Shown: positions 1-14,304, numbered from the stretch's first letter. The stretch: DNA of 18,069 bases from Bacteriovoracaceae bacterium (GCA_041586955.1 JBFGZE010000072.1:1-18069); one strand, 5' to 3'. Made by a program: numbers and translations. Notes: a model not told the origin generated them from the sequence alone.

Positions 1-280
1 GTTTTTTTAAAGTGAATCAATAAATTTCAGTATGTTAAGACCACTTGTGGACGAGTGATTATAAAGCTTTATTCTTGAGAATGACCATTATTATGGCCAC
101 CTGACTTGACTATTGTTTGCGAGATTATTTGTTCTGAATATATAGTAATAGAAAGAGCTTCTTGAGATTAATTGATCCTTATATCGGGTAAAGCTTTGAA
201 CTGCTTTCTTTCATTTCTGACCGGGCCATGATCAAACAAATCGATCTCGGTGATTAGTCGCAAACTCCCCCTTTTTTGTC

Positions 281-312
281 AAAAAAAAGGCCCTACATAT
301 TTGCAAGGCCTT
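281..312 (-). terminator. Rho-independent terminator after the 62-aa peptide gene
   Basis: Minus strand reads AAGGCCTTGCA-AATA-TGTAGGGCCTT (11-bp stem with two G-U pairs that work only on this strand), running into a T tract. It lies 30 nt after the stop at 343. Confidence 0.85.
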
Positions 313-342
313 CTTATAAGTAAGCAAAAATGATTATACTTT

Positions 343-531
343 TTATTTCTCTATACTTTCTGTCTTTTCTTCTTGAGTAATACCTGCACTGTCATTAATC
401 ACATCTTCTTGGTTTCGTGAACTTTGAATTTGTCCCTTGCAGTCTGGTTTTTGATGCTGACCAACTTCCTCTGCTGCAAAAATTAAATTCGAGGTTAAAG
501 TAACTAACATAATAATAAATAATTTTTTCAT
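343..531 (-). CDS. Small secreted acidic low-complexity peptide (62 aa), probable paralogue of the neighbouring Hit/Bd0108-like peptide
   Basis: Sec signal MKKLFIIMLVTLTSNLIFA, SD-like GGGAGAG upstream, own promoter and terminator. Shares TSNxI(F)A, VGxxQ, DC and QxxR with 677..910. Confidence 0.8.
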   Translation of the reverse strand: MKKLFIIMLVTLTSNLIFAAEEVGQHQKPDCKGQIQSSRNQEDVINDSAGITQEEKTESIEK

Positions 532-572
532 AAATAGCTCTCCCGTATTAATATACTATCTGCTATTTAATC

Positions 573-589
573 TGCATTTACCGTGCCAG
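573..589 (-). promoter_or_regulatory. sigma54 (RpoN) -24/-12 promoter for the 62-aa peptide gene
   Basis: Minus strand CTGGCACGGTAAATGCA against consensus YTGGCACGnnnnTTGCW. GG-N10-GC spacing is correct, with one mismatch. It is ~40 nt upstream of the ATG, and an IHF-like AATCAATAGTTTC lies at 605-617. Confidence 0.75.
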
Positions 590-617
590 TTTTAACCTAC
601 GTAAAATCAATAGTTTC

Positions 618-649
618 AAAAAAAAGGGTGGCCAATAAATTGCCACCCT
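618..649 (-). terminator. Rho-independent terminator ending the YD-repeat/77-aa transcript
   Basis: Inverted repeat AGGGTGGC (625-632) / GCCACCCT (642-649). The A-run at 618-625 gives a U tract on the minus strand. Confidence 0.9.
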
Positions 650-676
650 GTCAAAATTATAAACATATTATGTATT

Positions 677-910
677 TTATTTTCCTTGCCCCTTAGTCCC
701 AGGAATTTCTTCTACCTTTTCCTCTTCACTTACCTTGCCATCGCCGCGGTTGCCCTGTTTAAAGCAATCACATTCATTAGGATCAGCACAGTTTTGCTTT
801 TCTCCAACGGCCGAAGTGGATACTGGCCGGGGTTTTTCCTTTTCTTCTGCAATTATATTTGAGGTCGACAGCATTAACATTAAACATGTAAACATTGATA
901 TGATTTTCAT
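677..910 (-). CDS. Small secreted, probably disordered protein (77 aa); candidate Hit/Bd0108 counterpart
   Basis: Signal peptide MKIISMFTCLMLMLSTSNIIA and SD AAAGGTGG. Starts 20 nt after the YD-repeat gene, the position of bd0108 after bd0109. Mature part is charged and Gly/Pro-rich with 3 Cys. Confidence 0.8.
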   Translation of the reverse strand: MKIISMFTCLMLMLSTSNIIAEEKEKPRPVSTSAVGEKQNCADPNECDCFKQGNRGDGKVSEEEKVEEIPGTKGQGK

Positions 911-930
911 TAGATACCACCTTTATTAAA

Positions 931-2556
931 CTAAATGCTTAAATTTACCCCTGCAGGCTTAACAATTGTTAAAAGAGACTGAAAGGCCTGAGTGACCTGC
1001 AAGGCCATCTTATGGCCAGCTTTCGAGTCAACCTTATTGATATCCCCATAATTATCATAAGAAACAAAAATTTTGCCGACTTTACTCATCGCAATTTCAA
1101 TGGGCTTTCCAAGAGCATTGTATTTAAACGTTAGCACACGTTTCTTTTTAGTTTTCTTATTATAATCAATCATTTTAGTGATTCGTCCTTTTCTGTCATA
1201 AACGAGCAACACTGACTTACCTCGATGATTAACCGCTTTAGATAAATTTCCCTTTTTATCATAATCAAAATTTGTCCAACCTTTTTTATTCACAACTCTT
1301 GTGATCTTATTAAACTTTTTATGATAAGAAAGTTGGATAAATTCCCCACGAGTTGACGTCTTCTTTGTTAAAAGGCCTTTGGAATTATATTCAAAAGTTG
1401 TCACTTGCTTGCCACGAGTGATTTTTAAAGGAAGCGAACAACACTCAGAATAAATTGTTTCTGTCTTCACCTTATCGACAATCGTTAAAATTCGATAGGT
1501 ATATTGAGAACCATCTGGCCTTGTTTTTATTTCATACTCATAACGGTTTTTAGAAACTTCGCCACCACTTTTCTCTTTGGATACATCCGTCCAATAATGA
1601 AAATCAGGATTTTTAGGATCTGATCCGTACTCATATTTTACAGAGAGGCCGTTGCGCCCAATCACTTCACTAACAAATTGAGTCTTTTGAGTATACTTAA
1701 TCTTCATGGAAGATTTATCAGTATAATTAATAGATGTCATATTATGGTTATAATCGTAATCATACTTATAGACATTACCCGCAATATCTTTTGATTCTAC
1801 TAAGTTCTCGTTCTTATATTTATAAAACGTTTTTTTATCTCCTGCAGACCAAGTGCTTTTAATTTTCCCATCACTATACCATTCAAAAAATATTTGTTTC
1901 GCCTGGGAGTCTTTAATCGACTTGAGCATACCTGACTTATAAGTGAATTTGATTTCGTAGGCGTTTTTATCACGTATTGATAAAAGTCGCCCTTCTGCTG
2001 AAAAGGTTTCCTTTTTACCATCATTATACATTCTTAAAAAACCATTTTTCAGCTTTTTAATTTGTTGTAAACCTCTTTGATTTGAATATAGCATGGTGCC
2101 CGTTGCTAATTTTGCACGGACCTTAAATTTTCTAGCATAAGCATGTCTAAGTTCAGCATTATTGGTTAATTTATTGATAAGATTTTTAGCGACAGAAGAA
2201 GAGAGACTCGACTTCTTTCTCATTTTTTCAACAATCATTTCTGCTGCTTTCTTAGCATTAACAGCGGTACGTGGTGTAAATCGAGTTAAGGCGCCTGACC
2301 CATTTTCATGTACAGTGACTGAACCATCGGCCCCAACAGTCAAATAAGTTTCAAATTCTGATCCCCAGCCAAAGCCAAACCAGCCCTTGTCAGTCGCTTT
2401 AGAATTATAAGTCCTAGAAACCTTGAGATCCATTCCACCACCAGGCACAATGAGGTCGGTATAGGCGATATAAAAATTTCCATTTTTTAAATTAACACTG
2501 CCAAAGGATGTAGTGACAAACATCATTAACGACAATATAAAAAACAATTTACTCAT
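931..2556 (-). CDS. Secreted YD/RHS-repeat protein without a C-terminal toxin (Bd0109-like), 541 aa
   Basis: Signal peptide, then an Rhs N-terminal DUF6531-type motif (VNLKNGNF..DL..PG...L...RTYNS.....GWFGFGW) and repeated YD-type units (YDYNHNM, YNSKGLL, YDKKGNL, YDRKGRI, YNALGKP, YDNYGDI). No PxxxxDPxG core. ATG 2556 is preferred over TTG 2565 because of AAAGGA 9 nt upstream. Confidence 0.9.
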   Translation of the reverse strand: MSKLFFILSLMMFVTTSFGSVNLKNGNFYIAYTDLIVPGGGMDLKVSRTYNSKATDKGWFGFGWGSEFETYLTVGADGSVTVHENGSGALTRFTPRTAVNAKKAAEMIVEKMRKKSSLSSSVAKNLINKLTNNAELRHAYARKFKVRAKLATGTMLYSNQRGLQQIKKLKNGFLRMYNDGKKETFSAEGRLLSIRDKNAYEIKFTYKSGMLKSIKDSQAKQIFFEWYSDGKIKSTWSAGDKKTFYKYKNENLVESKDIAGNVYKYDYDYNHNMTSINYTDKSSMKIKYTQKTQFVSEVIGRNGLSVKYEYGSDPKNPDFHYWTDVSKEKSGGEVSKNRYEYEIKTRPDGSQYTYRILTIVDKVKTETIYSECCSLPLKITRGKQVTTFEYNSKGLLTKKTSTRGEFIQLSYHKKFNKITRVVNKKGWTNFDYDKKGNLSKAVNHRGKSVLLVYDRKGRITKMIDYNKKTKKKRVLTFKYNALGKPIEIAMSKVGKIFVSYDNYGDINKVDSKAGHKMALQVTQAFQSLLTIVKPAGVNLSI

Positions 2557-2602
2557 TTCTGACAATCCTTTTTAAAGAAACTCACACTATACTCCAATAT
2601 AC

Positions 2603-2629
2603 ATATCGGAATCAGAAAATCAGACTTTA
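2603..2629 (-). promoter_or_regulatory. FliA (sigma28)-type promoter for the YD-repeat/77-aa unit
   Basis: Minus strand TAAA-gtctgattttctgat(15)-TCCGATAT against consensus TAAA-N15-GCCGATAA. The -35 box overlaps the tadB stop codon. Confidence 0.75.
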
Positions 2630-3520
2630 AACTTTTATCGCCACAATTTTTAAAATGATGAAAAGACCCACGAAGTCCAATCCAATGATAAGAAGAAAAA
2701 CCAATATCCCTAAAGGGTTATTAAAGAAACTGATCATAACTTCAGGCTTATCAGAAGCGTATAAAAGACCTAATAACAAGGGCATAGAGGCGACAAGGAA
2801 ACCTTGGAAACGGCCATTCGCTGTAAAAGTATCAATTTTTTGCTGTAATCGAATCCGCTCGCGAATAATATCAATAATCGTATCAAATGTTTCTGATAGG
2901 TTACCGCCAGTTTCTCGTAAAATATTGACACTCGAAACAAACATATCATTATCTTCAGTAGGAATACGTTTCGCCAAATTGTCAAAGCAGTCCTCAAGAG
3001 TAACACCAATACGGTTTTGTTGCAGTAATAAGGTATACTCCTGACTTATAGGGTTTGGCAGTTCATCGGCGACCATACCAAGCGCCTGCGGAACCGAAAG
3101 ACCAGCTCTTATACCATTGGCCAATAATGTTAGAGCATCTACCATTTGCCCTGAGTATTGTTTAATTCTTCTCTCAACCAAAAAATCAACAAAAGGCCTT
3201 GGAATATAAAATCCGAAAAATCCGGCAGCAATAGATAAGAAAAAACCCCAACCCCATAGCCCCATGAGACCAAATAAGATAAGAACAATAAAAAAGTTAC
3301 CTATAGATAATAATAATAGGTAAAAGGTAAGTTTATCGGGATTAAACTCAATAAATAAAAAATCAAGTTTTTCAATTATATAATTACGAGTCCCAATCGT
3401 TCTATTTTCGACCCATTGGAATATTTCCTTTGAATACCGTAAAGAAAAAAGAAAGGTTAAAAGTCCCACGACTCCTATAATTCCACCTTCTCCCAAGACT
3501 TTTAATATTAAAAAATCCAT
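2627..3520 (-). CDS. tadB: Tad pilus inner-membrane platform protein TadB (T2SS F family)
   Basis: Multiple TM segments and motifs DALTLLANGIRAGLSVPQAL and ILRETGGNLSETFDTI..IIRER. Directly follows tadA. Confidence 0.93.
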   Translation of the reverse strand: MDFLILKVLGEGGIIGVVGLLTFLFSLRYSKEIFQWVENRTIGTRNYIIEKLDFLFIEFNPDKLTFYLLLLSIGNFFIVLILFGLMGLWGWGFFLSIAAGFFGFYIPRPFVDFLVERRIKQYSGQMVDALTLLANGIRAGLSVPQALGMVADELPNPISQEYTLLLQQNRIGVTLEDCFDNLAKRIPTEDNDMFVSSVNILRETGGNLSETFDTIIDIIRERIRLQQKIDTFTANGRFQGFLVASMPLLLGLLYASDKPEVMISFFNNPLGILVFLLIIGLDFVGLFIILKIVAIKV

Positions 3521-3523
3521 ACG

Positions 3524-5707
3524 CTACGCTTTCTTCTTTGTCAGAGGTTTTAATTTTTGTTTTTCATTTTGGTTTAGCGGTATAGGTTCCTTTTTCTTGG
3601 TCGGCGCTACCGTATTACTAAATAAACCGCGAGGGACGTTAAATCCCTTTCGTTCTAAAGCTTCAATGAACTTAGGAATAAACCCGGTCGCCTGAAAATC
3701 CCCTACAATTTTTCCTCGTTTGTCGATATCCTTTTGCTGAAACAAGAAGATATCTTGCAAAGTTACCACCTCACCCTGCATGCCTCCGAGTTCTGTAATA
3801 TGAGTAATTTTACGTGAACCATCATCTAATCGGGACTGCTGAACAATAAGATGAACAGAACTGGCAATCATCTCGCGAATTGACTTAGGACTAAGTCCCG
3901 CGCCTGCATATTGAACTAATGTTTCTAGTCTCCCAATGCACTCTCTCGGGTTATTCGCGTGGATGGTCGTCATGGAGCCATCATGCCCTGTTCCCATCGC
4001 CTGTAGCATATCGAGGGCCTCTCCCCCACGACACTCTCCAACAACAATTCGGTCTGGACGCATCCTTAATGTTTGCTTAACGAGACAGCGGATATCAATC
4101 TCGCCATCACCTTCCAAATTAGGAGGCCTTGTTTCGAGCCGAACAACGTGCTCTTGCGGAAAATTAAGTTCCGCTGAATCTTCGCAGGTAATAACTCGCT
4201 CATTGGCCTGAATGAAGGCGCCAAGGATATTAATTAAAGTTGTCTTACCCGATCCCGTACCTCCACTAACAATAATATTACGATGCCCTTCAACTGCTAT
4301 TCGTAAAAAGTCGGCCATATTTTGGGTAATAGAACCAAATTCAATCAAATTCTTATAAGTGAGACGCTCTTCTGGAAATTTACGGATCGTAATGGTACAC
4401 CCATCTAGGGAACTCGGAGGAATAATTGCATGAACCCTAGAACCATCATGTAAGCGAGCATCAACATATGGTGTTTTTTCATCAATCCTTCGTCCAATAG
4501 GGGCCACAATTCTCTCAATCACATTGAGAACTTGGCGATCATTAGTAAATGTAATGGTAGAACGCCTTACCTTTCCACCTTTTTCAAAAAATATTTTATC
4601 AGGTCCAACCACCATAATTTCAGAGCATTCTTTATCGGCCAATAAGTCCTCTAAAGGCCCTAGGCCGAGGGCCTCATCCAAAATTTCTTTTACGAATTGA
4701 TTAATTTCGTCGCGATTATTGATGATCCCCTTAGTATCTTCTTTGTTAAGTATTTCCACTACTATTTTCTTAGTTTGCTCACGTAAAATAAGTTTGGCCC
4801 GTGGATCATCATCATCAGTATTTTTGAGATCCATCTCCTCTACCAAGGACCGGTGAATCCGGGCCTTTAAGCTCGTCCAGGAACCACTTTTGATCGCGGC
4901 ATCCCCTACTGGCAAAGCTTTTTTCTGGCCCAAATCTTTTGGTTTGTTTAATTTAGAGAGTGTCTTTAAAACATTTTTTTGGTCTATTTTACGAACAAAT
5001 TCAATCATTCCCTTAGCGAAAGCAGAACTTTTGGCCGCCACCATGACTGGTAGCTTACGATTTAAAGCGACAACGCAAGCTTGGTCGTCCCGAGGTATCA
5101 CGCCGATAACAGGTGCACCGATCGTTTTTGAAGCAACCTCCGATGTCACAGGATGACCCTTAACTGATTGATTCATCATCAATAGAATCATATTTTTGGG
5201 AAACATCATGGTTATGAGTTCAGAATACAGTCTTTTGGTCTGGTTAATCGCCAAGATATCAGGGGTTACAACAAGAAAAATGGCAGTAGAATACTCCAAT
5301 GCCTTGAGGGTTAAGGTACCTAAATGACTACCTCCATCTATAATGATGTAAGGAAAAATGTTTGTCGCCGCCTTTAAAAATTTCCCTAACCCCTCGGGAT
5401 TAATTCCTGCCGCCGCATTAGGGTCTGACGGCATGCCGATAAAAGATACGCCCTGTTGGTTTGTTGTAATAAATTGCTGAATTGAGCGGGGGTCAATGGA
5501 ACCATTAAACTCACTCAATTCTTTTAATGTTTTTTTAGATTTTAACCCGGTAATTAAGCTTTGGTCTCCACAAGCGACTTGATCGAAATCTAAAAGTAAT
5601 GTTTTAGCTCTTTTTTGAGAGGCGTATGTGAAGGCCAAATTAGCAGCAACCTGAGATTTACCGACCCCGCCTTTTCCACCGATTATAGTAATGATAAATC
5701 CGGCCAT
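3524..5707 (-). CDS. tadA: Fusion of a MinD/ParA-type (TadZ/CpaE-like) domain and the Tad ATPase TadA/CpaF
   Basis: N-terminal deviant Walker A GKGGVGKS plus DFD. C-terminal CpaF motifs GLGPLEDLL, PYVDARL, Walker A GGTGSGKTT, Walker B LRMRPDRIVVGE and His box GHDGSMTTIH. Confidence 0.95.
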   Translation of the reverse strand: MAGFIITIIGGKGGVGKSQVAANLAFTYASQKRAKTLLLDFDQVACGDQSLITGLKSKKTLKELSEFNGSIDPRSIQQFITTNQQGVSFIGMPSDPNAAAGINPEGLGKFLKAATNIFPYIIIDGGSHLGTLTLKALEYSTAIFLVVTPDILAINQTKRLYSELITMMFPKNMILLMMNQSVKGHPVTSEVASKTIGAPVIGVIPRDDQACVVALNRKLPVMVAAKSSAFAKGMIEFVRKIDQKNVLKTLSKLNKPKDLGQKKALPVGDAAIKSGSWTSLKARIHRSLVEEMDLKNTDDDDPRAKLILREQTKKIVVEILNKEDTKGIINNRDEINQFVKEILDEALGLGPLEDLLADKECSEIMVVGPDKIFFEKGGKVRRSTITFTNDRQVLNVIERIVAPIGRRIDEKTPYVDARLHDGSRVHAIIPPSSLDGCTITIRKFPEERLTYKNLIEFGSITQNMADFLRIAVEGHRNIIVSGGTGSGKTTLINILGAFIQANERVITCEDSAELNFPQEHVVRLETRPPNLEGDGEIDIRCLVKQTLRMRPDRIVVGECRGGEALDMLQAMGTGHDGSMTTIHANNPRECIGRLETLVQYAGAGLSPKSIREMIASSVHLIVQQSRLDDGSRKITHITELGGMQGEVVTLQDIFLFQQKDIDKRGKIVGDFQATGFIPKFIEALERKGFNVPRGLFSNTVAPTKKKEPIPLNQNEKQKLKPLTKKKA

Positions 5708-5708
5708 C

Positions 5709-7205
5709 TTAACGCCTCCTCAATCGAAATTTTTTCTTAATTTTTTCTGTTCCCTCAGAGGCAGACTCAATGATTTCAGGAGTTAAGAAAACGACAAATT
5801 GGCTTTTTGTATTAGTATATGATTTCGAGCGAACAAATGAGAATAAGGGACTTGCTCCTTCAAATTCATCTTTATCACCAGGAGCATTTCGGTCAAAGTC
5901 TGTCGATGTTTTATTAATGACAATACCGCCTATTGCTGCCGACTCACGTGATTTAACAACAACCTTAGTTTTGATTGTATTGCTTAATGTTTCTGGAGGA
6001 TCACCAATTGTTGCTGAAACAGTCATCCCTAAATCTAGACTTATTTTTTCATTTTGTAAGATCACAGGCTTTACATTTAAATCAAATCCCGCTTCAGCTC
6101 GCTCCGCTTTAGTAAACTCGCCCGTTCCCACAGCAAAAGGCTTCGATTCCTTTTTATTAATATTCGCCAAAGTTTTATTTTCAACAATAATGACACCTGA
6201 TTGAATCACTCTAGCGTAACCTGCCGCTTTCGCAGAAGATAGCTTCGGTAAAAGATTAGAAATTCGGCCTGATAAGGCATCACTTGACTTTGTCGCCGTA
6301 TCACCTGCTGCCGTTTTCCCTATCCGTATCGATCCCTGACCATCTGATAATAATGGCTGCCATTTAAAACCAAAAATCTTATTATAATCTTTAGTCAATT
6401 CGACAAATTGTGCTGCAACTTTGATCAACTTGGGAATCGGCTGCGGAGAACTTTTTTCATTCACTTTAATTAAAGACTCTAAAATAGGCTTATTAACTTT
6501 TTGCACACTATCTGTTCGACGGGCAAGGCTTTCAATACGATCAGGGATATACAGACTGGCCAATTTAAATGCCTCGTCCTTTTGCGCTTTTGAAGAGACA
6601 ACCCCCTCTAAAACGAATATTTTATTAATTATTCTAACGGTAACATCTCTCATTTGACTTTTTTGGATTTCAGACTGCATTTTTCTGGCAATCACTTGCT
6701 GAGTCATTGGCGACAATTCCACAAGTCTAAGAACATCTGGGTACTTATCTAAAATGATAACCACTTTACCAATATCTTCGGGAACGATAATTTGACCACC
6801 GACAAAAACCTTATTACCCTTAATTCCTATTTTAATTCCCTCTATTCCTCCCAAATACTCTCTAAGTTCCTGCACAATTTTGGACAAATCATTCGCGGTT
6901 ATTGTTACAAAATAACGAGCTTTAATATCTCCTATATTATTACGCAAAATGACTGAAGTCCTTCCCGGCTTCACACCTTTAAATGTAATTTCTTTTTTTA
7001 CGGGAATTAATTCGTAGGTTAAAACGGATTCATTTCCTATTTGGACTTTTGCAGAGGGATTGAAGTCTAGGCGAATCACTTTATCAATTCCTACGACAAC
7101 TTCTATTTGTGTTTCGCTAGGATTATTTTCATTTTCTTCCTGGGAAAACGCCATCTCCGAAAAAGTACATAAAAATAGGCCCAAACAAATAATCAGTTTT
7201 TTCAT
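5709..7205 (-). CDS. cpaC: Tad pilus outer-membrane secretin RcpA/CpaC with BON-like N-domains
   Basis: Signal peptide, CpaC-type N-terminus (VQIGNESVL..ITFKGVKPGRTSVIL), BON-like VLEGVVSS, and secretin C-terminal motifs (PLFSFVRSKSY....SQFVVFLTPEII). Lies between cpaB and tadA. Confidence 0.9.
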   Translation of the reverse strand: MKKLIICLGLFLCTFSEMAFSQEENENNPSETQIEVVVGIDKVIRLDFNPSAKVQIGNESVLTYELIPVKKEITFKGVKPGRTSVILRNNIGDIKARYFVTITANDLSKIVQELREYLGGIEGIKIGIKGNKVFVGGQIIVPEDIGKVVIILDKYPDVLRLVELSPMTQQVIARKMQSEIQKSQMRDVTVRIINKIFVLEGVVSSKAQKDEAFKLASLYIPDRIESLARRTDSVQKVNKPILESLIKVNEKSSPQPIPKLIKVAAQFVELTKDYNKIFGFKWQPLLSDGQGSIRIGKTAAGDTATKSSDALSGRISNLLPKLSSAKAAGYARVIQSGVIIVENKTLANINKKESKPFAVGTGEFTKAERAEAGFDLNVKPVILQNEKISLDLGMTVSATIGDPPETLSNTIKTKVVVKSRESAAIGGIVINKTSTDFDRNAPGDKDEFEGASPLFSFVRSKSYTNTKSQFVVFLTPEIIESASEGTEKIKKKFRLRRR

Positions 7206-8020
7206 TATCGCCTTTTATATTTATCTAAAAAATAGGACTTCGCCTTATTTCTTTCTTCCGATGGCAAAACATCAAATAAATCGGTCGATTTTATCCTCAC
7301 CAATTTTTTATCATTATTATTTCTCAGTGAGAGATATGGCTCAAAGCCACTATAAGTAATTAGATAAACCAAGGTTTGAACCTGATAAGGATCTAGCTCT
7401 AACGTCACGGTATTATATTTAGTGTATATATTGGCATTCATAACTTTTATTTTTTTGGTATCTGGATCTGTAACACCGTTAATAGGAATGGCATTAGACA
7501 TACTCATCCCCGCAGAAAGGACAAGAACATCCTGTAAAATTGTACGTGCGGATTGCATATCCTTCCTTCCACTTGAAAAATCCAATGCACTTATGACATC
7601 CACACGATCTCCTGGTTTAATAAGCCTCGAAGCCGCTTGTCTTTCTGTAATTCTAATTGCGATCGCACGCTTCCCGACACTAACCTGACGAGACAAACCT
7701 GTTTTAGCATCAGGATAGGTGACTCGAGGTTTGGTAATTTGCTCACCCTTTAAAATAGGGACCGTCGCAATCGTATTCTCTAAGTCCTTTACAGAGTTAA
7801 AGCTTCCAGGCAACGCAAACTTTCGCGGAACGTTTTTAATGACAATTTTTCTATCATCAATCAATTCCAATTCTTTAATATCTTTTTTGGCAAAAATAAC
7901 AGGAACAGGACTGCCATAATTTTTAACAATCTCGCTTCGCTTGTCTTCGATAAAGGTATAAACCATAAACATAGCAATGATAGATATCACCAACGCCAAG
8001 GTAAATGCTCTGGTATTCAT
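7205..8020 (-). CDS. cpaB: Flp pilus assembly protein CpaB/RcpC
   Basis: N-terminal TM, SAF domain (VIFAKKDI..PILKGEQIT) and RcpC motifs GKRAIAI, LIKPGDRVDVI, ILQDVLVL, TVTLEL. ATG 8020 has GGAG 6 nt upstream, so it is preferred over TTG 8053. Confidence 0.93.
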   Translation of the reverse strand: MNTRAFTLALVISIIAMFMVYTFIEDKRSEIVKNYGSPVPVIFAKKDIKELELIDDRKIVIKNVPRKFALPGSFNSVKDLENTIATVPILKGEQITKPRVTYPDAKTGLSRQVSVGKRAIAIRITERQAASRLIKPGDRVDVISALDFSSGRKDMQSARTILQDVLVLSAGMSMSNAIPINGVTDPDTKKIKVMNANIYTKYNTVTLELDPYQVQTLVYLITYSGFEPYLSLRNNNDKKLVRIKSTDLFDVLPSEERNKAKSYFLDKYKRR

Positions 8021-8043
8021 ATTTTTCTCCAGGTAACTTCTTA

Positions 8044-8052
8044 ATTTTACCA
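8044..8052 (-). promoter_or_regulatory. Possible extended -10 sigma70 promoter for cpaB-cpaC-tadA-tadB
   Basis: Minus strand TGGTAAAAT (TGn-TAAAAT) 24 nt upstream of the cpaB ATG, in the 115-nt gap. AT-rich context limits confidence. Confidence 0.35.
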
Positions 8053-8135
8053 AAGAAATGAATAAATTTCCGCCTAGGCATTATATACTCAACTAGTTTA
8101 GTTTTATGGTTTGTTTAGAGCTTTAAAAGATCAAT

Positions 8136-8633
8136 TTAACGTACTTGGCAGGAAGAAGAGCCCTTATTGAGGTGATCCACTCTAAAGTGGTTATTACCAA
8201 AAGTAGAGTAGGACTCTCCACAAATCCCATAGAAAGTGAATACCCTTATAAAGTCTGTGCCCGTCTCACCCACTTTTGGCGCCTCACAGGTTTCTTCGTC
8301 ATTTTTACGCAATAAACTTGTCGTGGCATAACAATTCCCCCACGATACTTGATCTTGCGACTTCTCGCGCCAACCAACAGAAGACATCCCAGCATTCATG
8401 AGACCGGTGTTTTTCCATCGTATTAAATCTGTCGAAACTGGAGCGGTGGAATTACCACTTAGTAGATAATAGAAATATCGCCTCGTTGCTTTCTGTTGGT
8501 TTATTGACCCATTCAGCGAATTCCCAAAGGTCGTTAATAATGAAAAAGCGAGCATCAAAAACGGAATAAAAATAAGAAACTCAAAAATGGCCTGCCCACT
8601 ATCATTATTATTTTTAAATTCATCAGCAGCCAT
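8136..8633 (-). CDS. TadE/TadF-like minor pilin (165 aa)
   Basis: Class III signal SG|QAIFEF followed by a hydrophobic helix and a Cys-containing C-domain. ATG 8633 overlaps the upstream stop region; 8660 is an alternative start. Confidence 0.8.
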   Translation of the reverse strand: MAADEFKNNNDSGQAIFEFLIFIPFLMLAFSLLTTFGNSLNGSINQQKATRRYFYYLLSGNSTAPVSTDLIRWKNTGLMNAGMSSVGWREKSQDQVSWGNCYATTSLLRKNDEETCEAPKVGETGTDFIRVFTFYGICGESYSTFGNNHFRVDHLNKGSSSCQVR

Positions 8634-9204
8634 TATCTGAAATCGTGGTAAACATTTCACAACTCCCTCCTACTGCTTTCATCGCCGAACAAATGCGATC
8701 GACACATTCGGCCCGTGTAGGCTCTCTTCCCAAGAATGACTCTGATTTTAAATTCATTTCCCTTCTGGATCCAAAGAACGGCAAATAGAATGAATCCTTA
8801 TATTCGGAGTAATTTCCGATAAACAGCGGATTATTGGCATCTCCCGGGTAAAGTACTTTAAGGTCATTTTTGAAACCAGAGATAAAGTTTTGGATTTGAT
8901 AATGTTCAAAGACCTCCTTTGCCCTGTCCATAGCACTGGAGTCTGAGCCTGATGGCCTATTACTATTTACATCCACAACAAGAAAGGCCCTGCTGGCCAT
9001 ATAAGTCGCGTAATGAACAAGATAGCCATTGGTATATGAAAAGCCGAGTTTAGCAAAAGAAACGACAAACCCAAGGGACAAGGCCAATGCCAGAATAAAC
9101 TCAATCGTGGCCTGCCCTCGCTCGCTCTTATGGATAGGACGATCCCGTCGTAAAGAATCTCGATTTCCCTTCGTTTTTATTACTGAACGTCTCATGATCA
9201 CCAT
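8623..9204 (-). CDS. TadE-like minor pilin
   Basis: RG|QATIEFILAL prepilin motif and TadE-type LVHYATYMASR. Three C-terminal Cys plus a terminal Cys. Start is 9204, 9201 or 9195. Confidence 0.85.
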   Translation of the reverse strand: MVIMRRSVIKTKGNRDSLRRDRPIHKSERGQATIEFILALALSLGFVVSFAKLGFSYTNGYLVHYATYMASRAFLVVDVNSNRPSGSDSSAMDRAKEVFEHYQIQNFISGFKNDLKVLYPGDANNPLFIGNYSEYKDSFYLPFFGSRREMNLKSESFLGREPTRAECVDRICSAMKAVGGSCEMFTTISDNGC

Positions 9205-9448
9205 CGTAGCTAGAACTGTCCTCTAGCCCTTCTCTTCCATGCCTATAAGAATATTCTAACCTTTTACTTAAATTTGTGAAATAACTTGAATCCTCCGAGA
9301 AAAAAGACTGAAATAGTTTAGAATTATAAATAACATTGAAAATAGTAAAGACAACTATCATCACTAATAGATACTCGACCAAAGACTGACCATTTTGATC
9401 GCTTTTTATTTTAAGAGTGTTTTTATATTCCATCCAAATAAAATCCAA
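9128..9448 (-). CDS. Flp/TadE-like minor pilin (about 101-106 aa)
   Basis: NG|QSLVEYLLVMIVVF prepilin motif (Flp-type EY). Start is 9448 or 9433. Confidence 0.8.
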   Translation of the reverse strand: MDFIWMEYKNTLKIKSDQNGQSLVEYLLVMIVVFTIFNVIYNSKLFQSFFSEDSSYFTNLSKRLEYSYRHGREGLEDSSSYDGDHETFSNKNEGKSRFFTTGSSYP

Positions 9449-9909
9449 GTTAAAAATATGACCGGTGCAAAGGTGAGTTTCTTACCATAAACCCCTCTAA
9501 TCAAACTGAGTTGGTTATAGCGAAACGCATAAACTATTTTTTTTGCATCTTTTATCGTATTAAATATTAATACCGTTATTCCAAAGACTACCGTTAAAAT
9601 AATAAGTGATAATAAAGTTTTTTCATGCAGATGACTCGGAATCATTAAATAGAACGAGCATAAATATTTGGTATCCCCCGAACCCATAATCTTCACGACA
9701 AATAGAAAAAATCCTACAAATAAAAAAACGATGGGATAAAAAAAGGTAATGAGATTAAATTGATAATAATCTGGAAAGATGACACAAAATATAAAATAGC
9801 ATCCGATATTTAAAAATACCCATGCATTTTTGATTTTTTTTGTTTTGATATCAAAATAGGAAATAACCATTAATTGTATTAAGACAAAAAAATAGATGGA
9901 TAAAGGCAT
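9406..9909 (-). CDS. cpaA: Prepilin peptidase TadV/CpaA (A24 family)
   Basis: Small polytopic membrane protein with both catalytic Asp motifs (SYFDIK and MGSGDTK) and a C-terminal TFAPVI motif. Confidence 0.9.
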   Translation of the reverse strand: MPLSIYFFVLIQLMVISYFDIKTKKIKNAWVFLNIGCYFIFCVIFPDYYQFNLITFFYPIVFLFVGFFLFVVKIMGSGDTKYLCSFYLMIPSHLHEKTLLSLIILTVVFGITVLIFNTIKDAKKIVYAFRYNQLSLIRGVYGKKLTFAPVIFLTWILFGWNIKTLLK

Positions 9910-9912
9910 AAC

Positions 9913-10122
9913 CTACAACCTATTTACAAAGGCGTCATAAAAACAATATTCCTTACAGACTCCGGTACTTAAGTATTGAGTGAGAACAAAATTAAGACTA
10001 TTAAGGGAATTAGTCAGATTATCTTTCATTAATGCGAATATATTCACGGCCAAAAACCCCAAAAATCCAAATAGCAAAATGAATTCAATCAAGGCCTGAC
10101 CACGAGAATTAGTGCTAATCAT
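9913..10122 (-). CDS. Small TadE/Flp-like pilin (69 aa)
   Basis: RG|QALIEFILLFGFLGFLAV prepilin motif and C-terminal CxxxC. Confidence 0.8.
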   Translation of the reverse strand: MISTNSRGQALIEFILLFGFLGFLAVNIFALMKDNLTNSLNSLNFVLTQYLSTGVCKEYCFYDAFVNRL

Positions 10123-10128
10123 AAATAG

Positions 10129-10137
10129 ATTGTAACA
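10129..10137 (-). promoter_or_regulatory. Extended -10 promoter, leaderless start for 10122
   Basis: Minus strand TGT-TACAAT-ctattt-ATG, no SD. Confidence 0.55.
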
Positions 10138-10160
10138 AATTAGTGAATACTAACCGAGGA

Positions 10161-10195
10161 GAGAAAATATTTCTCAACAGCATGAATTATTGAGA
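10161..10195 (-). terminator. Stem-loop after flp (weak terminator or mRNA stabiliser)
   Basis: Minus strand TCTCAATA-8nt-TGTTGAGA followed by AATATTTTCTC, 10 nt after the flp stop. The U tract is imperfect. Confidence 0.45.
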
Positions 10196-10205
10196 GTACT
10201 CGACC

Positions 10206-10385
10206 TTAAAAGTTTATCTTACTGTCAGCATTTTCGAAAACTTTATTTGTTAAGCCTTCTAATCGTTCAACAGCAATGTCTTTAAATCGAAACACAATCA
10301 TCGCGACAACCGCGACCAATAGAATGTACTCTACTGATGTTTGACCTTCTTCATCACGAAGAAATTCAATGATCTTCTTCATCAT
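10206..10385 (-). CDS. flp: Flp major pilin (59 aa; 58 aa from ATG 10382), absent from the ORF track
   Basis: Hand translation gives MMKKIIEFLRDEEG|QTSVEYILLVAVVAMIVFRFKDIAVERLEGLTNKVFENADSKINF*. It has the canonical Flp motif FLRDEEGxxxxEY and SD AAGGGGAG. Confidence 0.97.
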   Translation of the reverse strand: MMKKIIEFLRDEEGQTSVEYILLVAVVAMIVFRFKDIAVERLEGLTNKVFENADSKINF

Positions 10386-12402: not shown

Positions 12403-13239
12403 TTAACCATTAAGTAACTTGAGGGCTATATTCGGAAATTGGTTTGCCTGCGACAGTACCGAAGTTCCTGCCTGGACAAGAATATTATTCTTGGCCATTT
12501 TAGCTGTCTCTGATGCAATATCAACGTCCCGAATTCTTGAGTTCGCCGCACTAAGGTTCTCATCACTGATTGCCAAATTACTAATGACCGATGACAACCG
12601 GTTTTGAGTTGCCCCAAGCTCGGCGCGAATTCCGTTAACACGTACAAGAGCATCATCCAATTTCTGAAGAGATAGTTGCGCGCCCTCTTTTGACGCAACT
12701 GTCTCTGCTTCCAAACCGAGTCCGGCCAAAGTCGAAGTGGCCATCGTCCCATCATAGCGAAGTCTGTCGAGCATAGGGTCATTATGTACCCCAACTTGGA
12801 ACTCAAGTATTCCCGATTGACCGTTAAGTAACTTTGTTCCATTAAACTCTGAAGACCTGGAGATTCTATCCAATTCTTCCTTAAGTTGCTGGAACTCAAT
12901 ATCGGTAAAACTACGTTCTTGAGCGCCGACAGTATCGGTGGCCGCTTGGACTGAAAGCTCCCTAAGCCTAATGATGATATTTGATATCTCATTTAATCCA
13001 CCTTCCGCTGTTTGTATTAGAGAGATAGCATCGTTAGCATTTCGCTTTGCTTGCCTACCACCTCTAATCTGGGCCCTTAAGTTTTCACTTATCGCTAACC
13101 CGGCTGCATCATCACTTGATCGCGTAATACGCAACCCTGATGATAATTTTCTTAAATTGCTATTTAGTTGATTCGTATTATTAGCCAATGTTCTCTGTGC
13201 CGAAATCGACGGAACATTGGTGTTTATTCGAAGTCCCAT
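12403..13239 (-). CDS. fliC: Flagellin (278 aa, D0-D1 only)
   Basis: MGLRINTNV, KLSSGLRI....DDAAGLAISE, QTAEGGL, RAELGATQNRL and SRIRDVD.A.E...NIL.QAG.SVL.QAN motifs. SD AAGGAG. Confidence 0.98.
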   Translation of the reverse strand: MGLRINTNVPSISAQRTLANNTNQLNSNLRKLSSGLRITRSSDDAAGLAISENLRAQIRGGRQAKRNANDAISLIQTAEGGLNEISNIIIRLRELSVQAATDTVGAQERSFTDIEFQQLKEELDRISRSSEFNGTKLLNGQSGILEFQVGVHNDPMLDRLRYDGTMATSTLAGLGLEAETVASKEGAQLSLQKLDDALVRVNGIRAELGATQNRLSSVISNLAISDENLSAANSRIRDVDIASETAKMAKNNILVQAGTSVLSQANQFPNIALKLLNG

Positions 13240-13455: not shown

Positions 13456-14304
13456 TTACATCTGAGACGCAGCTTGAATTAAGCTCAAGGCATTCTTCGT
13501 TGAAGAGTTCGCCTGCGCTAATACAGATGTCCCTGCTGTCATAAGAATATTATTCCTAGTCAGCTCGGCTGTTTCAGCGGCAACATCCGTGTCCCTAACC
13601 CTTGAGTTAGCGGCAGACATGTTTTCAACAGAAACTGCGATATTGTTAATGGTCGATTGTAAACGGTTTTGTAACGCACCAAAGTCTGCTCTAATTCCAG
13701 AAACTGAAATAATCGCCTGGTCAATCGCTGACAATGAATTCTGAGCAGAAATTTTATCTGCAACAGAAGCGAGATTGAGACCAAGAGCAGCGACGTTAAC
13801 ATCAGCAGATGAAGCATCAAATGTTAAACGATCTGAAATGGGGTCATTACGGGTACCAATTTGTATATCAAATACAGCACCAGTTCCGTTTAATAATGGA
13901 ACACGGTTAAATTCTGTTGAGTTTGCAATACGATCAACTTCAGAAGTTAATTGTTCAAATTCAACATTGAGAAATTTTCTTTCCGTTGGCCCAATGGTAT
14001 CAGAAGCGGCTTGCACAGATAGTTCTCTTAATCTAATAAGGATACTTGAAATTTCTGTTAACGCACCTTCAGCAATTTGAACGAGTGAAATACCATCTTC
14101 TGCATTCCGTTCTGCTTGCTTTAGACCTCTAATTTGTGCCTTTAGGTTTTCTGAAATCGCGAGGCCTGCAGCATCGTCACCGGCCCTGTTGATTCGTTGC
14201 CCTGAAGACAATTTTTCCAACGACTGGTTTAATGCCAAACGTGTCCCGCGTAAGTTTCTCTGAGCGTTCAGAGAGGCAACGTTTGTGTTGATTCGAAGTC
14301 CCAT
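13456..14304 (-). CDS. fliC: Flagellin (282 aa, D0-D1 only)
   Basis: MGLRINTNVASLNAQRNL, KLSSGQRINRAGDDAAGLAISE, RADFGALQNRL and SRVRDTDVAAE motifs. SD AAGGAGG. Confidence 0.98.
   Translation of the reverse strand: MGLRINTNVASLNAQRNLRGTRLALNQSLEKLSSGQRINRAGDDAAGLAISENLKAQIRGLKQAERNAEDGISLVQIAEGALTEISSILIRLRELSVQAASDTIGPTERKFLNVEFEQLTSEVDRIANSTEFNRVPLLNGTGAVFDIQIGTRNDPISDRLTFDASSADVNVAALGLNLASVADKISAQNSLSAIDQAIISVSGIRADFGALQNRLQSTINNIAVSVENMSAANSRVRDTDVAAETAELTRNNILMTAGTSVLAQANSSTKNALSLIQAASQM

Follow-up and report, generated by a model that had tools for sequence, protein, structure and literature searches.

A predicted sigma-54-dependent small secreted peptide follows a YD-repeat protein and its partner peptide at the end of a Tad/Flp pilus cluster in Bacteriovoracaceae

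A stretch of 18,069 nucleotides from a Bacteriovoracaceae bacterium (GCA_041586955.1 JBFGZE010000072.1:1-18069; hereafter the window, meaning this whole stretch) carries on its minus strand a complete Tad/Flp pilus cluster, and then three genes whose products appear to be secreted: a YD-repeat protein, a 77-residue precursor directly behind it (peptide 1) and a 62-residue precursor (peptide 2). Gene families were assigned with Pfam, and small open reading frames (ORFs) by eye. We find that the YD gene and peptide 1 make up one predicted transcription unit, that peptide 2 is set apart in a second unit behind a predicted sigma-54 promoter, and that this predicted split is kept across Bacteriovoracaceae and recurs in the class Bdellovibrionia. 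The regulatory split and the anatomy are old and real; the three-gene layout was known before, and the predicted control of peptide 2 by sigma-54 and an activator is the part that we did not find in print. We are very confident that both the architecture and the two promoter types are genuine. The locus is probably the Bacteriovoracaceae version of the Bdellovibrio 'hit' (host-interaction) module, found at the 3' end of a Tad/Flp operon.

The YD gene and peptide 1 would be transcribed together, fed by read-through from the pilus operon as well as by an internal promoter of the sigma-28 type, and ended by a strong terminator. Peptide 1 begins 20 nt past the YD stop codon, with no hairpin in the gap, and the terminator stands after peptide 1. 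Behind it lies what is predicted to be a self-contained peptide-2 unit, comprising a palindrome, a -24/-12 promoter, a ribosome-binding site, the peptide 2 gene and a terminator of its own (Table 1). The initial annotation of this DNA had proposed the same division into a shared unit and an insulated sigma-54 unit, and the positions of ORFs, promoters and terminators agree with it. The terminators that it placed after each peptide both fold as strong hairpins with a U-run (-14.8 kcal/mol and z -2.94 after peptide 1; -18.8 kcal/mol and z -3.79 after peptide 2; 0/200 shuffles as good in either case), and a simple consensus terminator scan of the window listed neither hairpin.

The sigma-28 (FliA)-like motif lies in the 61 nt that separate the YD gene from the tadB/C-like gene, and its TAAA includes the stop codon of the upstream gene. 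The FliA consensus is of the TAAA-N15-GCCGATAA type, to which the window motif matches at 10/12 positions, and the source genome has a fliA gene (TIGR02479, 268 bits, above cut-off), so that the motif and its sigma factor are both in place for a putative sigma-28 promoter. For sigma-54 the consensus is TGGCACG-N4-TTGCW. The candidate TGGCACGGTAAATGCA matches at 11/12 positions with the -24 GG and -12 GC at canonical spacing, and ends 41 nt before the peptide-2 ATG. The corresponding machinery is encoded by one rpoN gene (Sigma54_DBD, 1.1e-64) and by 13 matches to Sigma54_activat, 10 of them strong. Neither promoter motif is significant from the window alone: chance expectation is 0.21 per window for the sigma-28-like motif, with one match or more in 42/200 shuffles, and 0.47 for the sigma-54 motif, with one or more in 71/200. 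What makes them significant is that relatives conserve them at the same slots, which bears out the two different promoter types that had been claimed.

A YD homologue was found in 37/41 related genomes. In a species-level genome collection, 394 relatives were confirmed and 76 loci were fetched; 74 of these records are titled as Bacteriovoracaceae/Halobacteriovorax-type or as higher taxa of Bdellovibrio and like organisms, the other two being titled 'bacterium' (L041) and 'Sulfitobacter sp.' (L049). Altogether 106 loci were analysed, of which 94 were usable once we had dropped three whose YD gene was not recognised by a C-terminal motif filter (L026, L027 and L030), six exact duplicates, and three with less than 700 nt downstream. 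A signal-peptide ORF starting within 200 nt of the YD stop codon, in the position of peptide 1, is present at 89/94 loci. Sigma-54-preceded ORFs were counted where a motif of at least 9/12 positions, with GG and GC fixed, ended 10-80 nt before the start codon. By this measure a further signal-peptide ORF with a sigma-54 motif is seen at 74/94 loci at least, with two or more in 33 and three or more in 4, and tandem copies have a promoter each. These counts are lower bounds, as L008 and L016 have such genes that failed the hydrophobicity or start-site thresholds. Loss of the second peptide from related genomes, which the initial annotation had named among the results that would speak against it, is therefore not what we see. 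Over both strands of 1.38 Mb, 82 of the 121 sigma-54 matches at 10/12 or better lie 10-80 nt upstream of such a peptide. In the 140-nt slot upstream of YD, TAAAG-N14-16-CCGA occurs at 44/86 loci, compared to 5 matches elsewhere in 1.25 Mb. The union of four loose sigma-28 variants covers 69/86 loci (62 matches elsewhere), and a strict score (10/12, CGAT fixed) finds 29/95, many relatives having -10 elements of the CCGAAA type. The locus L049 (JBLHVN010000002.1) sits on a 1.27-Mb contig titled as a Sulfitobacter sp. metagenome-assembled genome, although the YD-peptide locus is of a typical Bacteriovoracaceae kind, with a YD identity of 69%; the taxon in the title seems to be the wrong one for the contig.

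Upstream of the sigma-54 promoters we see a palindrome with the consensus TGTCTAAAATTTAGACA (TGTCT-N7-AGACA). The window copy, TGTTTATAATTTTGACA, lies between the peptide-1 stop codon and the terminator stem, and starts 77 nt before the first base of the -24 element. TGTC-N9-GACA at 7/8 positions or better is present in 66/107 distinct sigma-54 upstream regions, whereas 15.8% have it among 2000 control windows of 200 nt drawn at random from these loci. Of the 66, 61 have a spacer of 9, the centre is mostly 50-80 nt from the -24 element, and several loci have two palindromes about 19 nt apart. A conserved palindrome at a fixed distance makes this a candidate upstream activator site, and together with the -24/-12 element it gives the layout expected for a putative bacterial enhancer-binding protein (bEBP); we take TGTCT-N7-AGACA to resemble known sites of such proteins. 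The control of pilA by PilS-PilR, and FleQ-type sites, are instances of pilus genes under sigma-54 and an enhancer-binding protein. Peptide 2 is like these in being a pilus-linked small exported protein with a -24/-12 promoter and a palindrome some 70-95 nt away. In contrast to pilins under sigma-54 control, peptide 2 is not a pilin: the class III leader with a G/XXXXEY motif, which marks Flp/type IVb pilins, is absent from both peptides, which have Sec-type signals instead, and the Flp gene of the window is a separate one (Table 1). Elsewhere in the source genome, the same pairing of palindrome and sigma-54 motif occurs at C26:32956, C18:43761, C79:7813, and C141:2421 and 3634. The genes behind such pairings include a 59-aa single-Cys secreted ORF (C26), a 344-aa lipoprotein-like ORF (C18) and secreted ORFs (C141), and these sites may form a small regulon. 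None of the strong bEBP matches of this genome lies on the contigs that have same-palindrome sites.

In Bdellovibrionia, a search with the YD protein of one class member as query gave a homologue in 120/121 genomes. The best 30 loci were taken, and 28 of them have about 1 kb or more of downstream sequence. At 21/28 the order is YD, a signal-peptide protein of 90-120 aa, a terminator, and one or two sigma-54-preceded ORFs of 50-95 aa. A related palindrome, TGTCTC-N5-GAGACA, recurs upstream. The first peptide usually has two Cys as CxxC, and in most of the sigma-54 ORFs a lone Cys is placed at the predicted cleavage site or right behind it. In one genus (27 sampled genomes, including L131), the YD gene is about 100 kb from the start and the first peptide has 97 aa with C55/C58; Bd0108 is reported as a protein of 101 aa with a C56-C59 disulfide (PMC4267844). 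Because of this YD gene position and the likeness of C55/C58 to the published C56/C59, we infer that the genus is Bdellovibrio, and that its sigma-54 peptides lie just behind bd0108. In L129-L137, which belong to this genus, the only Cys of the second sigma-54 peptide stands at the end of the signal peptide (…SFAAC, …SYGAC) and could be part of a lipoprotein-type cleavage site rather than a free Cys.

Mature peptide 2 has about 43 aa and is acidic (10 D/E vs 5 K/R; isoelectric point (pI) 4.5). Among 111 candidate family members, which include a few overlapping false frames, 102 have exactly one Cys, 89 have C-x6-9-[R/K], and 70 are net acidic. In an alignment of 106 sequences only M1, K2 and Cys31 are nearly invariant. 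The conserved core is about 15 residues long, reads (V)GE-x3-5-[DE]C-x7-R and comes right after the signal; a low-complexity tail follows. No match to either peptide was found in Pfam or NCBIfam, and a search of the ESM Atlas with peptide 2 gave no lead, with a best score of 0.83 to unnamed clusters. The same genome has a second peptide-2-like gene on contig C24 (33158-33382, minus strand; 74 aa, single Cys, hidden Markov model (HMM) E 0.016), with a 9/12 sigma-54 motif and the palindrome in the same register. Around it lie an ORF of 112 aa and, named by eye, a CheY-like and a Lon-like gene; a third copy in L038 has these neighbours too. Many relatives have such a third copy some 2.3 kb downstream, where it follows a 460-aa gene that is unrelated and, by eye, aldehyde-dehydrogenase-like.

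Peptide 1 has the place that Bd0108 has in its family, as a small Sec-type protein directly downstream of YD in a predicted shared unit. The mature form has 56 aa, three Cys (C-x6-C-x-C), 13 D/E vs 10 K/R, and a pI of 4.9; the residue counts in the initial annotation were exact for both peptides. The CXXC motif of the Bd0108 family is found in neither window peptide, and is present in the peptide 1 of some relatives (e.g. L005, L097 and L101). The peptide 1 family is variable in length (54-127 aa, 89 loci). The number of Cys in the predicted mature form is odd in 78/89 (one in 37, three in 24, five in 14, seven in 3), a share that ranges over 61-85/89 depending on the signal cleavage site assumed. 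A free thiol per peptide, from an odd Cys count in peptide 1 and the one Cys of peptide 2, suggests intermolecular disulfides.

The two peptides had been described as similar. This holds for their signal peptides, to which the BLASTP alignment of the window pair is limited (E 0.016); the mature parts do not align, and the relation between the families is patchy. With the peptide-2 HMM, 13/85 mature peptide 1s score higher than any of 425 shuffles (top score 10.2 bits), while peptide 1 of the window reaches 6.6 bits, inside the shuffle range, and a profile comparison of the two families gives E 0.17. Because those 13 outscore every shuffle, some peptide 1s appear to contain a peptide-2-like module, and the two families are, as far as sequence comparison goes, partly related at best. 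The gap between YD and peptide 1 is 70 nt or more in 40/89 loci (among L002-L104), compared to the 20 nt of the window. These long gaps often start with a short conserved hairpin (tgcc-N-ggca type), and by eye often have a TATAAT-like element about 30 nt before peptide 1. This suggests that peptide 1 may have a sigma-70-like promoter of its own, or a processing site, in those 40 relatives, which would complicate the two-promoter split.

The YD ORF extends to 544 aa from a TTG at 2565, and the likelier start is the ATG at 2556, 9 nt after AGGA. Pfam finds RHS_repeat (8e-19), DUF6531 (1.3e-15) and nothing else; NCBIfam gives a YD_repeat_2x match (TIGR01643, 1.6e-14), and RHS_core scores 24 bits vs a cut-off of 2000. 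An AlphaFold2 model from 91 sequences (predicted local distance difference test (pLDDT) 88.5, predicted template modelling score (pTM) 0.76) has a signal helix, beta-hairpins over residues 21-514 with a helical insert at 104-146, and a single C-terminal helix at 518-538. Foldseek matches it to Rhs cores of the type VI secretion system (T6SS; 7q97 RhsA, E 3.9e-22; 8qja, TMq 0.47), to teneurins and to Tc BC shells. The YD-repeat beta-sheet fold is thus shared with the canonical cocoon toxins (T6SS Rhs effectors, TcB-TcC) and with teneurin YD shells, from which the window protein differs in its length, its Sec signal, its lack of a toxin domain and, by Pfam, its lack of any PAAR or VgrG linkage. 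No toxin domain was found after the YD repeats by Pfam or in the model, and the description 'toxin-less' appears, from domain searches, to be correct: the 544 aa end with neither a C-terminal toxin nor a cleavage domain. The protein is very rich in Lys, as had been stated, with 74 in the 522 residues of the mature form (14.2%; pI 9.86). Sec-type signals were judged by inspection from a basic N-terminus, a hydrophobic core and small residues before the polar part, and this layout is seen in all three proteins, in agreement with the initial annotation.

The YD protein has the features of the Bd0109-type class, with YD/RHS repeats behind an N-terminal DUF6531-type domain and a gene at the 3' end of a tad/flp cluster. 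Its homology to the YD protein of L131, from the inferred Bdellovibrio genus, runs over the full length (33% identity over 549 columns, E 2e-95). With the tad synteny, this identity to the inferred Bd0109 orthologue upholds the proposed link to the Bd0108/Bd0109 hit module. We also observed a vicinal Cys-Cys pair in the window protein (motif YSECCSLPLK, window 1438-1443, residues 375-376). It is kept in 93/97 Bacteriovoracaceae homologues, and 86/97 have no further Cys; such a pair is absent from the 30 Bdellovibrionia homologues, whose Cys number 4-9. The pair was considered as a required covalent tether for the free Cys of the peptides and rejected, as L016 and L020 have the peptides with a Cys-free YD protein and the Bdellovibrionia proteins do without the pair. 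The YD gene of L014 has an in-frame TAA, and the longest open YD frame is no more than 325 aa in L051 and 258 aa in L074; broken genes or faulty assembly may explain these cases.

Several published observations bear on this locus. Capeness et al. report that bd0108 and bd0109 are co-transcribed with tad genes and that their products interact in vitro, and call Bd0108 specific to Bdellovibrio (PMC3818213), and Avidan et al. report a TAD operon under FliA control (PMC5430801). The hit locus of HD100 is like the window in having a secreted RHS/YD protein at the end of tad genes and then a small secreted Cys protein (PMC3818213, PMC4267844). The small protein Bd0108 is described there as disordered and as co-transcribed with Bd0109; for the window, co-transcription is predicted. 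Bd0108 has two Cys as CXXC (PMC4267844), whereas peptide 1 of the window has three and its family mostly odd counts; YD proteins of the window type have the conserved CC pair that their Bdellovibrionia homologues lack. A second peptide behind a predicted sigma-54 promoter is a feature of the window, of which the available text on Bd0108/Bd0109 makes no mention (PMC3818213, PMC4267844).

A closer precedent is found in Halobacteriovorax (Bacteriovorax) marinus SJ, where Crossman et al. describe a tandem duplication of hit (BMS0183/BMS0184) with 'limited similarity' to Bd0108 (PMC3526173), and where Prehna et al. note that BMS_0182 has two small signal-peptide neighbours, BMS_0183/4, with 'no significant homology' to Bd0108 (PMC4267844). 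This is the same family and layout, a Bd0109 homologue and then two signal-peptide proteins, and so the statement in the initial annotation that the arrangement had no prior description does not stand (PMC3526173, PMC4267844). The two proteins are treated in the available text of these papers as duplicates, with no promoters given, whereas the second peptide of the window comes with a conserved predicted sigma-54 promoter, a candidate activator site, terminators and further paralogues. Locus L038, from a record titled Halobacteriovorax marinus, has the same layout and sigma-54 motifs. We found no published sigma-54 or activator control of a hit-locus peptide in a search that lay outside supplements and subscription journals.

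The wider setting of these genes is summarised in Table 1. The window is contig C72 of a source genome of 3.46 Mb in 194 contigs (88% complete), and its closest public relatives are titled Bacteriovoracaceae or Halobacteriovorax. The pilus ATPase has a ParA/MinD-like (TadZ-type) N-terminal domain fused with a CpaF/T2SSE ATPase, and the small ORFs of the Tad cluster have no match in NCBIfam. A tandem pair of flagellin genes is found 2 kb away from the pilus cluster, at 12403-13239 and 13456-14304 on the minus strand. Upstream of the second is a looser motif, TAAAG-N16-CGAAAA, whose spacing is the same as in the YD promoter motif.

Table 1 Features of the window discussed in the text, in order of position within each group.
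Feature	Position	Strand	Basis
Intrinsic terminator of the peptide-2 unit (hairpin 284-315 + U-run)	276..315	-	folding
Peptide 2, 62-aa precursor, Sec-type signal, single Cys in GxxxxxxDC-x7-R	343..531	-	ORF, alignment, composition
Predicted sigma-54 promoter TGGCACGGTAAATGCA	573..588	-	sole window match at <=1 mismatch
Intrinsic terminator of the YD-peptide 1 unit (hairpin 625-649 + U-run)	617..649	-	folding
Putative bEBP site, palindrome TGTTTATAATTTTGACA	649..665	-	conservation of palindrome
Peptide 1, 77-aa precursor, Sec-type signal, positional counterpart of Bd0108	677..910	-	ORF calling, composition
Secreted toxin-less YD/RHS-repeat protein, Bd0109 counterpart, 544 aa	931..2565	-	ORF, Pfam, NCBIfam, AlphaFold2, Foldseek
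Sigma-28 (FliA)-like motif TAAAG-N15-CCGATA (TAAA-N17-CGATA)	2604..2629	-	sole match in window
Upstream Tad/Flp pilus cluster, whole	2627..10385	-	Pfam; Flp by eye
TadB/C-like protein	2627-3520	-	Pfam
TadZ-like/CpaF ATPase fusion, 727 aa	3524-5707	-	Pfam
Secretin	5709-7205	-	Pfam
RcpC/CpaB	7205-8053	-	Pfam
Three ORFs, no family match	8136-9448	-	Pfam
Prepilin peptidase	9406-9909	-	Pfam
TadE-like ORF	9913-10122	-	by eye
Flp prepilin	10206-10385	-	Flp-type G/QTSVEY motif by eye

We tentatively favour a reading in which the YD/pilus module is what peptide 2 acts on. The pilus and flagellar (attack-type) programme would bring the YD protein and peptide 1 with it. Because sigma-54 promoters are silent without an ATPase activator, peptide 2 would only be made when a particular enhancer-binding protein had been activated by its signal, so that its production would be gated by that signal. 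It would then serve as a periplasmic or surface modulator of the same YD/pilus module, probably contacting the YD protein, and its single conserved Cys may work via a disulfide. Complex prediction with mature peptide 2 and the mature YD protein, both given as alignments, returned interface scores (ipSAE) of 0.29, 0.46 and 0.39 (median 0.39), where the best of three controls reached 0.00. The runs share at least 67% of contacts, and pLDDT for the partner is about 44-46. Such low confidence in peptide 2 fits a disordered peptide, as published for Bd0108. In calibration the pass mark was reached by 116/157 solved complexes and by 2/215 mismatched pairs, and scores of 0.60 or less comprise only 18 of the 157 solved complexes plus both of the mismatches that passed. 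The prediction is weak support, which may raise the odds of binding between peptide 2 and YD a little and settles nothing.

A number of observations weigh against this reading. The peptide 2-YD score, obtained with alignments that we supplied, falls in a band that is more often wrong than right unless the pair was likely beforehand. No sigma-54 peptide passes our thresholds in 20/94 loci, where some are misses (L008, L016) and others are limited by a 1.5-kb flank. Paralogues of peptide 2 are also found away from the YD gene, both behind the 460-aa gene and on C24 beside the CheY-like gene. Because the pairing of palindrome and sigma-54 motif also precedes other small secreted ORFs, a place next to YD does not have to imply that the target is shared. 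Between the two classes no sequence homology of the peptides is detectable, be it to the inferred Bd0108-like peptides or to the sigma-54 peptides of Bdellovibrionia, with hhalign E values of 0.46-0.83. Against 29 inferred Bd0108-like mature peptides, HMM scores top out at 9.0 bits for peptide 1 and 4.5 bits for peptide 2, in the range of shuffled sequences (9.2 and 9.5), and hhalign gives E 0.83 and 0.38, respectively, so that homology to Bd0108 is not detected for either by these comparisons. The sole exception is the peptide-1 HMM on a sigma-54 peptide from Bdellovibrionia, L126_1, at 11.8 bits vs a shuffle top of 8.1. As for the promoters, Avidan et al. list Bd0108-Bd0109 of B. bacteriovorus among attack-phase genes that are not FliA-regulated (PMC5430801), and the two flagellin genes of the window have no strict match to the sigma-28 pattern. 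Lastly, four sequencing runs were found to contain the stretch, all of them DNA from one marine-metagenome study, with no RNA run listed.

Alternatively, peptide 2 would have nothing to do with YD and be one member of a scattered sigma-54/activator regulon whose products are small secreted single-Cys proteins; these might, for instance, be signals that leave the cell, work in the envelope or in redox reactions, or form part of the surface or matrix. The place of peptide 2 beside hit would then be due to duplication or to synteny inertia. The extra copies next to unrelated genes, the pairings that precede other secreted ORFs (C26, C18, C141), a conserved part of only about 15 residues around the Cys, and the weak complex score are all as this account would have them. 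It has more difficulty with the copy placed immediately behind the YD-peptide 1 unit in 74/94 Bacteriovoracaceae and 21/28 Bdellovibrionia loci, at YD identities down to about 33%, and with the fact that all three controls of the complex test scored 0.00. We consider it on the unlikely side, if a serious contender.

The initial annotation went further than our preferred reading, and took peptides 1 and 2 as interchangeable ligands that compete for one YD site and are produced at different stages of the life cycle, under sigma-28 in the attack phase and under sigma-54 in another, giving a two-input pilus/lifestyle switch. As a functional model, alternative ligands of one YD scaffold are plausible but unproven. 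The two promoter types do differ and are both conserved, the mature peptides are acidic (pI 4.9 and 4.5) where YD is basic (9.86), 13/85 peptide 1s score above shuffles with the peptide-2 HMM, and the complex prediction lends weak support to peptide 2 with YD (0.39, the best control being at 0.00). Binding of Bd0108 to Bd0109 is moreover published (PMC3818213). On the other hand, the window peptides are alike in the signal peptide only, with peptide 1 in the shuffle range at 6.6 bits, the comparison of family profiles stays at E 0.17, and there are often three or more copies of peptide 2, some of them unlinked to YD. Two interchangeable ligands making up such a switch is in our view an improbable account, and strict competition with peptide 1 for one site is just as doubtful.

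That the promoter motifs are chance matches and peptide 2 no real gene is hardly credible: shuffled windows do often reproduce the motifs, and the base composition of the whole source genome predicts about 9 sigma-54 sites of at least 11/12 where 22 are seen, but ORF, signal, Cys, promoter, activator site and terminator are all met again, in an unchanged relative arrangement, at about 100 loci from two classes.

Overall, the reading in which peptide 2 modulates the YD/pilus module can be extended to the whole phylum. Secreted single-Cys micro-proteins gated by sigma-54 and an enhancer-binding protein would then be an ancient, phylum-wide third component of the hit switch in predatory Bdellovibrionota, present even right behind bd0108 in Bdellovibrio; on receipt of the signal the peptide would be exported, would engage YD, possibly via its lone Cys, and would re-set how the pilus behaves and whether the cell grows as a predator or host-independently. 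This extension we hold to be rather unlikely as it stands. If it were true, the activator would be the missing sensory input of the lifestyle switch. How the hit locus couples the state of the pilus to the switch between predation and host-independent growth has been an open question since the 1990s, and we know of no upstream signal. A conserved sigma-54 promoter and palindrome beside the hit locus in both major predator classes offer a concrete handle on this: the sensor domain of the enhancer-binding protein that acts on TGTCT-N7-AGACA would name the signal, and the small peptides, some perhaps unannotated in model strains, become targets for knockout and binding experiments. Should peptide 2 turn out to be unrelated to YD, the finding would still stand as a clear case of predators with a small sigma-54 regulon made up of secreted micro-proteins.

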